Assembly (NCBI RefSeq): GCF_035594765.1 | Contig: NC_085845.1 | Coordinates: 48,540,024-48,604,023, forward strand | DNA: 64,000 nucleotides | Direction of reading: 5' to 3' | DNA from: Anolis carolinensis | Taxonomy: Eukaryota | In this document: piece after piece, positions 46,451-54,242 of the stretch | Layout: every line of letters starts with the position of its first letter | Numbering within the stretch: position 1 is the first letter of the stretch | Program-made: the position numbers and the translations under genes | The notes under the pieces: generated by a model | Told to the model about the DNA's origin: nothing | Databases searched by the model: none | What the model saw: the letters and a program-made list of their open reading frames with translations, nothing else

Positions 46451-46599
46451 TATGTAGTTATAGTCCCATTGTTGGATTAAAAATGAATAAACAACAGCAA
46501 CTCTTGATTGGTTTCTTTGACTTTCAACATAGAAGCAAGAAAAGAATGAATTCTAGTCTGATGAGGGCCACTGTAAAAGCTAAAGTGGTATTCATCTTC

Positions 46600-47570
46600 T
46601 GTCACGACCCAGGTTGCAAAGGCACCAATAACCAAACACAGAGGCCAGAATCTAACTAATATCTTTATTGAAGGAATATATAAAGTTAATAAAAGCAAGT
46701 ATATGAAATAGTCCAAAAGCAGACCTTTCAGGAAAGGTCTAAATTAGTCCAAAAAAGCGATGTCCAATATGAAATATTAAGGTCCAAAGTTGTAATCCAA
46801 TAACCGAAACACTCACTTTGCCAGGCAAAGTGAGGGGAGATGACAAGTCCTTTAGTCCATAAACTTGAGCAAGGCTAGGAAATAACTTGATACTTGAACA
46901 AGGCTTAAAACGTGGAACAAGGTAACTAGGAACAAGAACAAGGTCCGTGGAATAACTTGGTAAAATCCGTGATACAAGGCAAGGATTGGTCCTGGGCAAC
47001 AAGGCGAAGTCCGTTGGTAAACAAGGCTGGGAAGCAAGGCGAAGGCTGGAAAGCAGGGCAAGGCTTGAGCAGGAGCGAGGCTTGAATCGGAGCGCGCTGT
47101 CCAGACACAACTCGCTCCGTAGGCTGACGAATTGACTCCGCGAAGTTACTACGCGGGTAAAACACCTAAATAGAGTCTAACTTTCCCGCCGAAGCAGTTC
47201 TCTGGGAATCAGAACCGAAAGCTAAACTCCGAGACCAGATGTGAGACTCCCCAAAGATTCTCACGAGAAGCAGTCTTAATTGGCCACATTCTTAGCTGCA
47301 ATCCTCGCACTCCTGCGCGAAGCTGATTCCAAACTTCTCTGTTGTTTACAAAACTCCCGGCGCAAGAACACGGGAGAAGTAGGCTCTGGGGTTGTTTGAC
47401 ATACTTCTGGGAGACAACTTTCTTGCAGGTGCAAGGTTTCCAGATCTGCCTGGGAAAGATCTGGCTGAGGGGAATCCAGTTCTGACTGGGAAGGTAAAAA
47501 ACCCAAGTTTTCCTCCTCATCAGGAATTACAATGTCCTGAGCAGGACTACAAGGCCCATGGGTCATCACA
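46600..47570 (-). repeat. 3' LTR (971 bp)
   Basis: Begins TGTGATG and ends GTGACA on the minus strand. AATAAA on the minus strand at 46669-46664. Confidence 0.97.
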
Positions 47571-50500
47571 CTATCCCCCTCCTCAAGGCCCCTCCCAAAC
47601 TGGGGCCCTCTCCCCGAGGCGCGAGGTCGCGGCTTGGCGGGATAGGTTTGATGAAAGCGGCGGGTTAGATCAGGAGCATGGACTGTGGAGGCGTCTTCCC
47701 AAGAGCGTTCCTCAGGGCCAAAACCCACCCAGTCAATGAGATATTGTAGGCGGCGGCGATGAAAGCGAGAATCCAAAATGTCCTCAACCTCGAACTCCTC
47801 CTCCCCATTCATCAAAACAGGAGGGGGGGCCGGTTGGTCTGTATCAGGACGCACACCATCCGCCGGAAGGAGCAGGGAACGGTGAAACACTGGGTGAATG
47901 CGCATTGAACGCGGAAGTTGGAGTTTGAAAGTCACGGGGTTTAATTGCGCCACCACTGGATAGGGGCCAATGAAACGGGCATCTAACTTCCGGCAAGGGC
48001 GGTGGGAGGGCAGAAAGCGAGTGGACAGAAAAACCCGTTCTCCTACCTTGATTTCAGGGCCCGGCTGGCGGTGTTTGTCAGCGTGGCGTTTATAGTCCTC
48101 CTTGGCTTGGTCCAGTTGCTGGAGCAAAAGTTGTTGCACCGCTGTGAGTTCCTGCAGCCAATCCTCTGCTGCGGGAACTTCTGAAGTTTCAATGACAGGG
48201 GGAAAGAAACGTGGATGGAAGCCGTAGTTTGCAAAGAACGGCGTTTCTTTTGTAGAAGCTTGAACTCCATTGTTGTAGGCAAACTCTGACAGTGGTAACA
48301 GAGAAGCCCAATTGTCCTGTTGGTAATTTACATAACAGCGAAGATACTGCTCTAAAGTGGCATTGGTGCGCTCCGTTTGCCCATCTGTTTGGGGATGATG
48401 AGCTGAAGATAAGCGAGAGTCTATGCCCAATAGTTTTTGTAGTGCCTTCCAAAAACGAGAGGTGAATTGAGATCCACGGTCTGTGACTAAACTCTTGGGC
48501 AATCCATGTAGTCTGAAAACATGTTGAAGGAATAGATCTGCGGTCTCTTTGGCCGTGGGGAGGCCTTCGCAGGGAATGAAATGGGCTAACTTGGTGAAAA
48601 GGTCCACCACCACTAAGATCGTGGTGAATCCACAGGAAGGTGGTAGGTCAGTGATGAAATCCGCAGAAATTATTTCCCATGGGCGAGATGGGGTAGGAAG
48701 GGGGTGTAAAAGCCCTGAGGGCTTCTCCCTTCTTATCTTGGAGCGCTGACATACTGGGCAGGTGTTGACATATTTTTCCACATCCTTGCGGATCTTGGGC
48801 CACCAAAAATCCCTTAGGATCAGATGCATGGTTTTAAATAGTCCGAAGTGTCCTGCTGGTTTGCAGTCATGACACAGACGAAGCGCTTTTTCCCTGCCCG
48901 GTCCGGGTGGGATATAAACATGATTTCTATAGCAAAGCAGCCCATCTTTAAGCGAAAAGGGAAAATGCAGACCTTGGCGAAGTTGGTCCTGCGCCCAGGC
49001 ATCTGCTTGCTGACTAGCCCTGATTTCTTGAGCACAGATGGGTCCTGGAGTAGAGGAAGTTGAACCAATGGAAATGGATTTGGTGTTCCCCACTGTTAGC
49101 GTGGCAAAGTTCTCGGGTTGTAATAGTTGGGATTCAAAGGTCTCCTTACGTCCTGCAGCGTATTCCGGTTTACGTGACAGGGCGTCTGCTTGCTTGGTCT
49201 GGGCTGGGGTCACGTAATGAATCTGGAAGTTGAAACGTTCGAAGAATAAAGCCCAACGTTGCTGCCTCTGATTCAGTTTGCGGGCAGTTCTTAGATGTTC
49301 TAGATTACGATGATCAGTATGGACTTCAATGGGAAATTTGGCCCCTTCTAGCCAATGTCTCCAAGTTTCAAAGGCTGCCTTTATGGCCAGTAGTTCTTTT
49401 TCCCAAATGGTGTAATTCCTCTCTGGTGTGGTTAGTTGACGAGAGTAAAAGGCACAGGGATGGAGGTGATCTCCCACCGGTTGTAAGAGTACAGCCCCAA
49501 TTGCCACATCGGAGGCGTCCGCTTGCACAACAAAAGGGGTTCCAGGATTTGGGTGCTGTAGAATTGGCTGGGAGGTGAATAGTTTCTTTAGTTGCTGGAA
49601 CCCTTTCTCTGCTTGATCAGTCCAGCGGAAAGGCTGCTTTCCACGGATGCAGCTAGTGATGGGGTCGGACCAGCGGGCAAAATCTGGAATGAACTTGCGG
49701 TAATAGTTCGCGAACCCCAAGAAACGCTGCACCTCTTTCTTGTTAGTTGGCGCCCGCCATTCCAATACTGCTGAAACCTTGGCTGGATCCATGGAAAGCC
49801 CTAGAGGCGAGATGCGGTAACCAAGGAAATCTACCTCTTGTAGATCAAAGGCGCATTTTTCCAGCTTGGCATAAAGTCCATGATCCCGCAGTCGTTGTAA
49901 CACCATTTTGACGTGGTTCTCATGTTCTGATTGTGATCTAGAAAACACCAAAAAATCGTCCAGGTAGATTATCAAGAACCTGTCTAGATAGTCCTGAAAA
50001 ATGTCATTGACAAAATGCTGGAACGTTGCGGGAGCTCCGCATAAACCGAAATTCATAACTCGGGACTCGAATAATCCGAATTTGGTCTGGAAGGCGGTCT
50101 TCCACTCGTCCCCTTCCCTGATGCGAACTAAGTTGTAAGCCCCCCGAAGATCCAGCTTGGTGTAAACCTTGGCTCCTCGAAGCCGATCCAGTAGATCCGA
50201 GATTAAGGGCAGGGGATAGCTGTTCCGCTTGGTGATATTGTTCAATGCTCTGTAGTCCACCACCAAGCGTAGTTCCCCTGACTTCTTCTTCACAAACATC
50301 ACTGGGGAGGCGGCTGGGGATTGAGAGGGTCTGATGAATCCCTTGCGAAGGTTTGTCTCTATGAATTCCCTGAGAGCTTCTTGCTCTGGTTCGGTCAGGG
50401 AGTAGAGATGCCCTCGCGGGATCGGGGCCCCCTCCACCAAGTCAATGGCACAGTCATAAGGTCTATGTGGGGGTAATTTTTCGGCTTCTTTCTCATTGAA

Positions 50501-51040
50501 TACATCCCAATACTCGGAGTACTTCTTTGGCAAGGTGATGATGGGCTCGGTGTCTGTGGCATGGCAGACCTTGGCTACGAGGCAATGGTTTTGGCAATAC
50601 GGTGAAGCAAACTGCAGTTCTCTGTTGGACCAGGAGATGTTAGGGTCGTGGAGAGTCAGCCATGGGATTCCCAAAATCACAGGGAAATGGGGAACCTCGG
50701 TAACAAAGAAGGAAATCTCTTCCATATGTTCCCTTATCCACATCCTGGTGGGTTCCGACCACTGACTTACGGGGCCCGTCTTGAGGGGGCGGCCGTCTAT
50801 GGCTTGCACCACACGGGCATTCTTGAAATCATGATATTGTAATCCCAGAGAGTCGGCATACTCTCTATCAATGAAATTGTTGGTAGCTCCAGAGTCTATC
50901 ATGGCGTGGATCATGACGGGTCCCCTTTTTGCTGACCATAATGTGACCACGAGAAGGAACAGGACCCCGGTTGGCGGCTCTTGGATAGATTTTTTGACCG
51001 GGTTGGCGAGCCTCTCTACACCCGGTCGTTGGCTTCCCCC
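47276..51040 (-). CDS. pol: Pol (protease, RT, RNase H, integrase, chromodomain) in the -1 frame relative to gag; the true start is probably the frameshift site near 51040, not the annotated codon at 50950
   Basis: Motifs: IDSGAT (protease), YLDD (RT), DASD..E..D (RNase H), HHCC plus D-D-E and GPY (integrase), FEVEDILDSR...YLIDWVGFGPEERSWE (chromodomain). The frame is open from just after a TGA near 51061 to the stop at 47276. Confidence 0.95.
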   Translation of the reverse strand, partial: GGSQRPGVERLANPVKKSIQEPPTGVLFLLVVTLWSAKRGPVMIHAMIDSGATNNFIDREYADSLGLQYHDFKNARVVQAIDGRPLKTGPVSQWSEPTRMWIREHMEEISFFVTEVPHFPVILGIPWLTLHDPNISWSNRELQFASPYCQNHCLVAKVCHATDTEPIITLPKKYSEYWDVFNEKEAEKLPPHRPYDCAIDLVEGAPIPRGHLYSLTEPEQEALREFIETNLRKGFIRPSQSPAASPVMFVKKKSGELRLVVDYRALNNITKRNSYPLPLISDLLDRLRGAKVYTKLDLRGAYNLVRIREGDEWKTAFQTKFGLFESRVMNFGLCGAPATFQHFVNDIFQDYLDRFLIIYLDDFLVFSRSQSEHENHVKMVLQRLRDHGLYAKLEKCAFDLQEVDFLGYRISPLGLSMDPAKVSAVLEWRAPTNKKEVQRFLGFANYYRKFIPDFARWSDPITSCIRGKQPFRWTDQAEKGFQQLKKLFTSQPILQHPNPGTPFVVQADASDVAIGAVLLQPVGDHLHPCAFYSRQLTTPERNYTIWEKELLAIKAAFETWRHWLEGAKFPIEVHTDHRNLEHLRTARKLNQRQQRWALFFERFNFQIHYVTPAQTKQADALSRKPEYAAGRKETFESQLLQPENFATLTVGNTKSISIGSTSSTPGPICAQEIRASQQADAWAQDQLRQGLHFPFSLKDGLLCYRNHVYIPPGPGREKALRLCHDCKPAGHFGLFKTMHLILRDFWWPKIRKDVEKYVNTCPVCQRSKIRREKPSGLLHPLPTPSRPWEIISADFITDLPPSCGFTTILVVVDLFTKLAHFIPCEGLPTAKETADLFLQHVFRLHGLPKSLVTDRGSQFTSRFWKALQKLLGIDSRLSSAHHPQTDGQTERTNATLEQYLRCYVNYQQDNWASLLPLSEFAYNNGVQASTKETPFFANYGFHPRFFPPVIETSEVPAAEDWLQELTAVQQLLLQQLDQAKEDYKRHADKHRQPGPEIKVGERVFLSTRFLPSHRPCRKLDARFIGPYPVVAQLNPVTFKLQLPRSMRIHPVFHRSLLLPADGVRPDTDQPAPPPVLMNGEEEFEVEDILDSRFHRRRLQYLIDWVGFGPEERSWEDASTVHAPDLTRRFHQTYPAKPRPRASGRGPQFGRGLEEGDSVMTHGPCSPAQDIVIPDEEENLGFLPSQSELDSPQPDLSQADLETLHLQESCLPEVCQTTPEPTSPVFLRREFCKQQRSLESASRRSARIAAKNVAN
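47571..47584 (-). promoter_or_regulatory. Polypurine tract
   Basis: GAGGAGGGGGATAG on the minus strand, immediately 5' of the 3' LTR TG. Confidence 0.9.
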
Positions 51041-52002
51041 GCCGGCTGTGTGCCAGTCGGCTCAGACGCCTTCGTCTCCGTGGAGGACGCCGCCGCAAGA
51101 CGGGCGGCAGGCTTCCCTTTGGCTGGGCACTCTCTGGCGAAGTGGCCCCCATTCCCGCAGTACCAACAGAGGTTAAAGCGTTGACGACGGGCCTTCTCGG
51201 CGGCATCCAGTCTGGGACGCACATTGCCCAACTGCATCGGCACCTCCTCGCCTCCTCTGGGGTATGGGGTTGGCGGTGGGGGTCTCCACACTGGACGTGG
51301 CTGAACGCTGGTGGGAGCGGGGGGTTTTGCCCCGGCTCTACTGCCCTGGCCTCGAACCCACTGTTTCCTGTTGGCAATCATGACTTCAGCCCGTAAACAT
51401 TGATCAATGAGTGCCTCGAGGGTCTGGGGAGGATCCACCTTGGAGATTTCTTCCAGCATTTCAATGTTGAGACCCTCCCGGAATTGTCCTCTGAGGGCTA
51501 CATCGTTCCAGCCGGTGTTGTGGGCCAGCACTCGGAACTCGGCTATATACTGAGACATTGGTCTGTCTCCTTGGAATAGGCGACGGAGTTTGTGACCGGC
51601 TGCCTCCAAATTGTCCTCGATTCCCCAAGTCTCCTTGAGGTGGTCCAAGAAGTGTTGCGCTGATCTTAGGTGTGGAGAGGCTTGGTCGAACAGTGCCGTC
51701 GCCCAATTGGCCGCTGGCCCGTCTAGAAGACTGTAAACCCACGCCACTTTGATGTCTTCTTGGGGAAACTCGGCATCACGGGCCTCTAGATAAGCTTGAC
51801 ATTGGCGACGGAAAACATGAACCTTAGAAGCTTCTCCAGTAAACTTGGTAGGCAACGCCATGGCCGGGAGGCGGATTCCGCGCTCCCGCAAGCCCTTTAT
51901 TTCTCCATCCTGGGCGTTGAGTCTGTCGCGGATGCGATCCACCTCATCCTTGTCGATGGTGTAGGTAAGCGGCTGCCCACCCGGCACGGTTCCGGTAGAC
52001 AT
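51016..52002 (-). CDS. gag: Gag (capsid plus CCHC nucleocapsid) of the chromovirus, 328 aa
   Basis: PTKFTG...F..QC..YL capsid start typical of sushi/PEG10 Gag, an MHR-like LFQGDRPMSQYIAEFR segment, and the zinc knuckle CWYCGNGGHFAREC. The ATG is 44 nt downstream of the 5' LTR. Confidence 0.95.
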   Translation of the reverse strand: MSTGTVPGGQPLTYTIDKDEVDRIRDRLNAQDGEIKGLRERGIRLPAMALPTKFTGEASKVHVFRRQCQAYLEARDAEFPQEDIKVAWVYSLLDGPAANWATALFDQASPHLRSAQHFLDHLKETWGIEDNLEAAGHKLRRLFQGDRPMSQYIAEFRVLAHNTGWNDVALRGQFREGLNIEMLEEISKVDPPQTLEALIDQCLRAEVMIANRKQWVRGQGSRAGAKPPAPTSVQPRPVWRPPPPTPYPRGGEEVPMQLGNVRPRLDAAEKARRQRFNLCWYCGNGGHFARECPAKGKPAARLAAASSTETKASEPTGTQPAGEANDRV

Positions 52003-52033
52003 TCTGGCCTTGGTTAATTGGTGCTTATGGGTG

Positions 52034-52043
52034 GCGGAGTCAA
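52034..52043 (-). promoter_or_regulatory. Primer-binding site of the self-priming type (TTGACTCCGC)
   Basis: Starts 2 nt after the 5' LTR, has no TGG to pair with a tRNA CCA end, and is perfectly complementary to GCGGAGTCAA at 52587-52578 inside the LTR. Confidence 0.85.
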
Positions 52044-52045
52044 AC

Positions 52046-53016
52046 TGTCACGACCCAGGTTGCAAAGGCACCAATAACCAAACACAGAGGCCAGAATCTA
52101 ACTAATATCTTTATTGAAGGAATATATAAAGTTAATAAAAGCAAGTATATGAAATAGTCCAAAAGCAGACCTTTCAGGAAAGGTCTAAATTAGTCCAAAA
52201 AAGCGATGTCCAATATGAAATATTAAGGTCCAAAGTTGTAATCCAATAACCGAAACACTCACTTTGCCAGGCAAAGTGAGGGGAGATGACAAGTCCTTTA
52301 GTCCATAAACTTGAGCAAGGCTAGGAAATAACTTGATACTTGAACAAGGCTTAAAACGTGGAACAAGGTAACTAGGAACAAGAACAAGGTCCGTGGAATA
52401 ACTTGGTAAAATCCGTGATACAAGGCAAGGATTGGTCCTGGGCAACAAGGCGAAGTCCGTTGGTAAACAAGGCTGGGAAGCAAGGCGAAGGCTGGAAAGC
52501 AGGGCAAGGCTTGAGCAGGAGCGAGGCTTGAATCGGAGCGCGCTGTCCAGACACAACTCGCTCCGTAGGCTGACGAATTGACTCCGCGAAGTTACTACGC
52601 GGGTAAAACACCTAAATAGAGTCTAACCTTCCCGCCGAAGCAGTTCTCTGGGAATCAGAACCGAAAGCTAAACTCCGAGACCAGATGTGAGACTCCCCAA
52701 AGATTCTCACGAGAAGCAGTCTTAATTGGCCACATTCTTAGCTGCAATCCTCGCACTCCTGCGCGAAGCTGATTCCAAACTTCTCTGTTGTTTACAAAAC
52801 TCCCGGCGCAAGAACACGGGAGAAGTAGGCTCTGGGGTTGTTTGACATACTTCTGGGAGACAACTTTCTTGCAGGTGCAAGGTTTCCAGATCTGCCTGGG
52901 AAAGATCTGGCTGAGGGGAATCCAGTTCTGACTGGGAAGGTAAAAAACCCAAGTTTTCCTCCTCATCAGGAATTACAATGTCCTGAGCAGGACTACAAGG
53001 CCCATGGGTCATCACA
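52046..53016 (-). repeat. 5' LTR (971 bp)
   Basis: Direct repeat of 46600-47570 at offset 5446. One mismatch seen by eye (C52628 vs T47182). The fully LTR-internal ORFs in the track are identical between the two copies. Confidence 0.97.
52578..52618 (-). promoter_or_regulatory. LTR core promoter: TATA-like TATTTA and predicted +1 / self-primer
   Basis: TATTTA at 52618-52613. The PBS-complementary 10-mer starts at 52587, 31 nt downstream, which is canonical TATA-to-TSS spacing. Confidence 0.75.
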
Positions 53017-54242
53017 TCTTCCTATCTACACCTTACTTCCGATAAACTCTTTCACAACCCAATCTAGTGTCTACTAATTTTGTTTATCTCTTAAATGTTC
53101 TATGAAAATGGATTGGCCTTCTGATCCCCTCCCAAGCACATATATTTCTTTAACTAGATTTAACTAGGAACATCTACTCTTGTGATTACTGAAGAAACTC
53201 AGTTTTTCACCCATGTAAAGTTTACTGTTCTAACAATACTCTAGGGCTTAAAGCCAGATCTCCCACTGCCGGAGAACCCATAATGACCCAACTACTACTT
53301 TGACATGTGAAAAAGATTATACACAATGTAAATTATAACTGCTGCAGTTATCAATTGCCATCAAGTAGCCTTTGACCTCAAGTAGCCTATGAATGACTTC
53401 CAAGGCACTGTTATCAAAAGCTCTGCTCAGGTTTTGCAAATTCAGGATGTTCACATCATTGTTTATATTCACCTGTTACATGGTCCCATTCTCCCGTTCT
53501 TTTCCTACTGTCTTCGGTTTACTAAGTACTACTATCTATATTTACAGATAATTTTTTTAAGCCAACAAAAATTCTGACTTAATCACAATTTTCCATTTGT
53601 GGAAAAAGCTATAAGTTAATAAATATACATGGATGCTATCATGGGGTTTGTGCCTCTGCCTAGACCAACAAAAGGACAGTTAAATAACATGTCTCCTGTG
53701 TCCCGGTGTGAGCTAAAAGAAGACAGCAAGGCAAGAGTTAATTTGAACTAAAGAGGAAAGGAGGAGTGTTGTCTGGGGAGGAAGGCTAACGGAGAGTTAA
53801 TCAGGGATCACATCCAAAGCCAGGCATGGATAAGCCTCACTAATGAGGCTCAAGTACCCTGCCGTGGCTTTCAAACCTAACTGGCTTCAAACGATGCCAC
53901 CCCATGACAGAATGCAGCTAGCCATATGAAGAGTGTGATTAGAATAAATGACTACAGTAATTAACTTTGATTTGAAGCCACCTGACTGGAAAGAGAAGCT
54001 AGGAGCTGTTTAGCTGAACTCTTCCCTCCTCGAAAAGGGAAGCTTCTCTTTACTCTAGTGTTTGTATGTGTGAGGAGAGCTTTTTCTTTCAAAGACGGAT
54101 TGGGTAGAACTAATGAAAAGCAGCTTTCATTGAATAGCCTCCCCATTCATTCTGAAAGGAGGGAAGAAGAAAAGCTTCAAAGGGCGACTAATTTACTTCA
54201 TCCCAATCACCTTTGGAGAGTTTAGAGTTTGCATTGCCACTT

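Follow-up and report, generated by a model that had tools for sequence, protein, structure and literature searches.

How does a retrotransposon begin reverse transcription when its primer-binding site (PBS) has no TGG to pair with the CCA end of a tRNA? This question is raised by an element on the minus strand of the window, by which we mean the whole 64,000-nt stretch of Anolis carolinensis DNA that was analyzed. The element is a young Ty3/gypsy chromovirus. Its PBS is exactly complementary to a 10-mer of its LTR, and it very probably primes itself with the start of its own RNA, released by RNase H as in Tf1.

The gag and pol frames of the element are open, and protease, RT, RNase H and integrase lie in that order between two LTRs flanked by a target-site duplication, as in Ty3/gypsy chromoviruses (Table 1). 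The integrase is followed by a Tf2-type SH3 domain and, at its C-terminus, by a chromodomain (PF00385, E 3.1e-9, above the cut-off). The catalytic motifs of pol are present, and those of RNase H are intact. Proteins labelled Anolis carolinensis match the RT region at 98% identity, in keeping with the initial annotation, which had placed the element in an amniote, and the best protein matches of the element are from squamate, frog and fish elements. Kinship with PEG10 had also been proposed, and the best solved-structure (PDB) match of Gag is indeed PEG10 7LGA (E 4.3e-11). From the position of the predicted polyadenylation signal, R is predicted to span ~500 nt and U5 to be short. As a separate observation, the pol frame enters U3 of the 3' LTR by ~295 nt (47570-47276, minus strand), giving an acidic tail after the chromodomain.

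Table 1. Features of the element and of its predicted priming structures, in window coordinates
Feature	Position	Strand	Remarks
5' LTR, TG...CA	52046..53016	-	971 bp
3' LTR	46600..47570	-	971 bp; single mismatch (52628) to the 5' LTR
Target-site duplication GAAGA	53017..53021	-	second copy at 46595-46599
TATA-like box TATTTA	52613..52618	-	first T (52618) lies 31 nt ahead of the start of the complement
Predicted self-primer, 10 nt	52578..52587	-	predicted transcript nt 1-10; exact PBS complement; covaries with the PBS
Second helix, R arm (GUCA, nt 14-17), predicted	52571..52574	-	pairs with 52050-52047
Only AATAAA/ATTAAA of the LTR	52110..52115	-	predicted polyadenylation signal
Third helix, U5 arm, predicted	52053..52097	-	
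Primer-binding site (PBS)	52034..52043	-	starts 2 nt past the LTR end
Third helix, leader arm, predicted	52001..52032	-	ends at the gag start codon
gag	51016..52002	-	328 aa; capsid and CCHC knuckle
pol, -1 frame	47276..51061	-	1261 aa stop to stop, no internal stop
Polypurine tract	47574..47584	-	3 nt before the 3' LTR

Past the LTR end (...GTGACA, 52046), the element strand reads GT (52045-52044) and then TTGACTCCGC (52043-52034), without TGG. The exact complement of the PBS, GCGGAGTCAA, is found at 52587-52578 and in the 3' LTR copy, and is absent from the rest of the window. The initial annotation had described this pair of sequences and had put the start of the complement 31 nt after TATTTA, which the coordinates bear out (52618 against 52587). 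Of 20,000 Markov-resampled LTRs, 43 contained, at whatever position, a 10-nt complement to one of five possible starts past the LTR, a figure computed before a position behind the TATA box was required. Analysis with RNAduplex returned the in-register extension that had also been described: the 10-bp helix, a 3x3 internal loop and a GUCA/UGAC helix, totalling -26.8 kcal/mol. The GUCA/UGAC helix is short, with a register that differs among subfamilies. Assembled contigs extend across U3 too, cannot show where the transcript starts, and were counted neither for nor against a start at the complement; such a start is indirectly backed by the TATA spacing and by the letters that follow the PBS (see below).

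A third helix, which was absent from the initial annotation, is predicted between U5 and the leader and encloses the PBS. Its energy is -39.5 kcal/mol (z -3.95), and none of 200 shuffles was as low. Across 30 copies of the window element's primer type (type A, described below), 94% of cells of this structure were paired, with two-sided changes at 4 of 24 pairs, against at most 56% of cells for slid control structures; the structure was drawn from these same, related sequences, so that the controls lean in its favor. The helix is clear in type A and variable in types B and C. Because the helices cross, the modelled layout is that of the 'pretzel' pseudoknot described for Tf1, and all three duplexes of the Tf1-type arrangement are predicted here. 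When the entire 590-nt 5' region is folded to minimum energy, primer nt 1-8 pair inside R, not with the PBS; this fold is unremarkable (z -1.16), and the folding program cannot form pseudoknots. An R site able to pair with primer nt 1-8 lies at 52459-52451 (minus strand), with similar words in other subfamilies, and could conceal the primer sequence of the 3' R, which has no PBS after it.

The 534-nt loop between primer and PBS and the competing hairpin in cis favor the main rival explanation, namely that a primer with the sequence of the LTR 10-mer is made otherwise: in trans from a second packaged RNA, by a host nuclease or through a small-RNA pathway. The covariation and co-inheritance results presented below would all fit any primer of that sequence. 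Against such an origin, the helix beyond the 3x3 loop and that between U5 and the leader reproduce the arrangement of three duplexes on which Tf1 depends, according to the account of Tf1 in a preprint on S. osmophilus (10.1101/2022.12.06.519325), and the intact RNase H motifs likewise count against a primer made in trans or by a host enzyme. We consider this origin unlikely and retain self-priming in cis as the working explanation.

A host tRNA fragment or another small RNA could in principle prime the element, with the LTR complement being incidental. Half-tRNA priming exists in some Ty1/copia lineages, as stated in the treatment of primers in PMC6317226, and the host tRNA set used for comparison (64 distinct genes, 31 anticodons, 17 amino acids) is incomplete, with no Glu, Trp or Tyr. 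Among these 64 genes, the longest match to the PBS region of the window was 6 nt, against a host-flank background of 5-10 nt, and the longest CCA-anchored (3') match was 2 nt; the longest match for primer type C, 8 nt, also fell within the background. No tRNA match above background was therefore found in this set. Furthermore, the four PBS sequences described next each track their own LTR, and we give a tRNA-derived or other small-RNA primer almost no weight.

In order to compare related elements of the genome, 80 of 150 gag matches were retrieved, of which 43, together with the window element, passed full-LTR-pair filters (n=44). A perfect complement of 10-14 nt beginning 1-2 nt past the LTR was present in 41 of these full-length elements, and the other three have point changes in the PBS. 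The same search in the 3' host flanks of those elements gave a complement of at most 8. Three primer types were distinguished: A (10 nt; 34 elements, including that of the window), B (11 nt; nine elements) and C (11 nt; one element), types B and C being ~60% identical to the window element in RT-RNase H. All 41 scored elements have a TATA-like word beginning 30-32 nt upstream of the primer, given a word list picked after viewing the elements and a weak match in B and C. A fourth family, type D, was reached via its SH3 domain; it has a 304-bp LTR and a single ORF, and is 46% identical to the window element. Its PBS is an unrelated 11-nt sequence at the same offset, whose complement lies ~30 nt after TATATAAA; the complement score was at least 10 at 9 of 12 loci and 7 at one, the ends being mis-called at the other two. 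In all four types, the LTR complement begins with a purine and is preceded by a pyrimidine, the usual arrangement at polymerase II starts. Four families of one genome differ in PBS sequence, and in each the LTR contains the matching complement at equal spacing; the covariation between PBS and R-start 10-mers that the initial annotation had looked to is clear across them.

Several observations were made alongside this survey. Type D (L384-L395) is a second young family, with a single ORF of ~1,600 aa and open frames in many copies, and locus L062 is a member of a further family. Type B is apparently rich in LTRs without an internal region, with 158 matches to a single LTR variant against 56 PBS-bearing copies; a PBS sought at 30 type-B LTR-variant loci (L212-L241) was found at none. 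Two of the 56 type-B PBS copies carry a PBS variant, one with a normal LTR 11-mer and one in which none was found. A search of viral contigs for further elements returned nothing. Eighty metagenome loci yielded few clean LTR pairs; three related ones (L272, L292 and L293) have an 8-nt complement at offset 2 and another locus has a 9-nt complement, all too weak to count. At the gag-pol junction of the window element (51042-50975, minus strand), pol lies in the -1 frame, and a hairpin and possible pseudoknot occur at the usual spacing. The heptamer there is non-canonical (G_GGG_GAA) in all 21 scored near copies and in every type-A copy whose gag extends to this stop, and types B and C have the canonical G_GGA_AAA; our literature search found no paper on a G_GGG_GAA heptamer in retrotransposons.

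The mechanism that we infer, in its start, folding and cleavage, would run as follows. Transcription would begin at or beside 52587, after which nt 1-10 of the RNA would pair with the PBS and nt 14-17 with the end of U5, and a third helix would join U5 to the leader, forming the pseudoknot. RNase H would cut after about nt 10 to leave a 3'-OH, RT would extend this primer into U5, and the lost 5' nucleotides would be restored from the 3' LTR. Plus-strand synthesis would then copy the primer, so that the PBS strand of each new copy would be written from the LTR 10-mer. Such copying of the primer by the plus strand follows by analogy with tRNA primers. For Tf1, one paper states in its title that the primer stays on the cDNA. 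Copying of the primer into the PBS would explain how primer and PBS drift jointly without tRNA constraint.

This last step makes the genomic copies informative. The genome contains 4,677 instances (4,574 + 103) of the exact word formed by the LTR end and PBS, and both 10-mers are unchanged in 21 of the best 22 matches to the 5' LTR and leader, counting the window, the last of the 22 lying outside the scoring anchors used. We think it probable, with clearly less assurance than for self-priming itself, that these ~4,700 copies form a fossil record in which every replication cycle renews the PBS from the 5' end of the RNA of the element itself, LTR variants enter the PBS, the letters after the PBS record the start to within 1-2 nt, and primers drift freely, at least four having arisen in this genome.

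Variants shared between LTR and PBS bear on this directly. In copy L101, the 10-mer of each LTR carries a C-to-T change, and the PBS has the corresponding G-to-A change. These variants were counted in 974 type-A elements of 440-500 nt spacing, a range that leaves the window's own subfamily (>500 nt) outside: five carried both, 16 the LTR variant only, 14 the PBS variant only and 939 neither. The five doubles compare with 0.4 expected (Fisher p 2.7e-5; collapsing a single clade of three copies gives 0.0036). Where both LTRs carried the variant, the PBS was compensated in three of five copies, as opposed to none of 14 with the variant in the 5' LTR only (p 0.010; one of the 14, L193, has a partner LTR only 74% identical and may be a false pair), and the remaining two of the 21 LTR-variant copies were compensated and had no scorable 3' LTR. 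A variant confined to the 5' LTR arose after insertion. In the reverse direction, the LTR variant was present in 7 of 37 scorable PBS-variant copies (42 found) versus 16 of 955 others. On a tree of 86 copies, the seven doubles, which include one three-copy clade, need five origins, ruling out a single one. The compensated site is a CpG on both sides and so mutates often, but independent CpG decay was rejected as the source of the doubles, since these fall where the variant is present in both LTRs; CpG mutation supplies variants and leaves their LTR-PBS coupling unexplained. The 14 PBS-only variants and two of the five both-LTR variants are uncompensated. Separately, three type-A units stand in tandem at 5,453-bp spacing with a common PBS variant (L162-L164).

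The letters that follow the PBS provide a second record. Of 136 type A-C copies examined, 132 have a C directly 3' of the PBS, and genome-wide 103 type-A copies have a purine in its place (of the 100 listed, 89 have G and 11 have A), from which all 11 listed A copies and the first 29 G copies were retrieved. A C stands just before the LTR 10-mer in 28 of the 29 G copies versus 4 of 28 copies chosen on another basis (p 6e-11, counting copies and not events); given this upstream C, a G after the PBS lengthens the complement. The G label requires at least five changes on a tree of 52 copies, and one G copy is identical to a C copy over the LTR part. The next few letters have 14 spellings in the G copies versus 4 among 19 C copies, a clustering that is biased since the C copies were mostly picked by likeness to the window. 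Six of the 11 A copies extend their own complement, and five resemble loss of the C; a mismatch to the copy's own LTR after the PBS is seen in 5 of 11 A copies, 1 of 29 G copies and one type-B copy. In one type-D copy (L392:1663-1700), the complement runs 23 nt, 12 of them into U3, and is followed by sequence unlike the normal leader. Taken together, the co-inherited variants and the PBS+G copies with an upstream C indicate that the PBS is probably written anew from LTR sequence of the same element, with the LTR 10-mer as the likely template, as self-priming predicts.

On the simplest reading, the 3' border of the PBS is the end of a nascent DNA whose template was the LTR start region, and some transcripts begin 1-2 nt early. 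Fold-back of the plus-strand end could yield the same letters, which therefore fail to map the start uniquely; they support primer copying more firmly than they map the start. Fold-back also belongs to an explanation in which the pairing is structural, serving dimerization, packaging or suppression of the 5' polyadenylation signal, a different primer is used, and the co-variation stems from fold-back of nascent DNA or from structural selection. Although fold-back can account for the extra letters, above all the 12-nt extension of L392, the plus strand ends in a PBS copy only if a PBS-complementary primer was copied, and the sole PBS-complementary sequence found is the LTR 10-mer. In addition, the helix begins 2 nt past the LTR end in four families, where the primer must end. 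A purely structural role is accordingly rated as highly improbable, and the self-priming reading of the initial annotation gains support from the four-family covariation, the tRNA comparison and the copy-level variants.

Two further ideas were set aside. A cap-templated C after the PBS was left as speculation because type D lacks the C. The primer motif is missing in 11 of 130 PBS-bearing copies, seven of which have truncated 5' LTRs that start at R positions 12, 146, 260, 282, 284, 393 and 428; these starts were considered as fossil cleavage ends, for which the one lying just past the predicted cut (L116:1772, R nt 12) is an anecdote, one in seven.

The mechanism itself is not new: it has been established in Tf1, and published work predicts it for vertebrate Tf1/sushi elements. 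The initial annotation had named both the 11-nt self-primer of Tf1 and the vertebrate proposal, and the literature agrees in its relevant passages (PMC7175516, which describes the 11-nt primer and RNase H cut, and PMC6317226). Self-primers 'from yeast and vertebrates' are mentioned for the Tf1/sushi group by Neumann et al. 2019 (PMC6317226). The preprint on S. osmophilus (10.1101/2022.12.06.519325) treats self-priming as a trait common to that group and also describes the pretzel. Both name Butler et al. 2001 as the source for self-priming and the pretzel in the vertebrate group, and PMC4600332 implicates self-priming from fungi to vertebrates. PMC10516033 uses anole metaviruses as relatives or proxies of domesticated capsid genes, and PMC4340606 contained nothing bearing on the question. 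Our literature search, which covered sources outside subscription journals, turned up nothing on self-priming in anoles and no use of copy variants as evidence, and the genomic evidence for a primer copied into the PBS appears to be new. An anole chromovirus was reportedly the subject of a 2009 paper.

Like Tf1/Tf2 of Schizosaccharomyces pombe and like Tj1, Tosmo1-3 and Tcry1, the window element has a PBS complementary to the predicted RNA 5' end, a three-duplex 'pretzel', here predicted, a chromodomain integrase and a Tf2-type SH3 domain. It differs from Tf1 in its 10-nt rather than 11-nt primer, in a CCHC-bearing gag with pol in the -1 frame where Tf1, as outlined in 10.1101/2022.12.06.519325, has a single ORF and no CCHC, and in its R of ~500 nt and ~4,700 PBS-bearing copies. 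Primer cleavage has been shown for Tf1 and is predicted for the window element. The vertebrate Tf1/sushi group (GyDB V-clade: sushi-ichi, Amn-ichi, -ni, -san) resembles it as chromoviruses with a -1 gag-pol layout, and self-priming and the pretzel are reported for that group in the accounts cited above; the window element, whose host is a lizard, is likened to the group by features, among them a PBS with no tRNA complementarity among the 64 genes and a PBS complement at the predicted RNA start. With the PEG10/SIRH-RTL genes it shares the best solved match of its Gag and a protease that follows a -1 shift, as in PEG10. Unlike these domesticated genes, it is a complete, recently inserted element with LTRs. 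To our knowledge, PEG10 lacks an RT, an integrase and an LTR priming signal.

Fission yeast has provided the demonstration of self-priming, which elsewhere has been deduced from complementarity, and the copy variants add a second, independent line of support, from an amniote. A prediction made in 2001 thus becomes testable by counting copies and, if the reading given here is true, the same count could test self-priming in any genome rich in young copies, while the letters after the PBS would amount to a genomic 5' RACE, to within 1-2 nt. For the family, it means that relatives of the elements that founded PEG10 and RTL1 likely replicate without a host tRNA.
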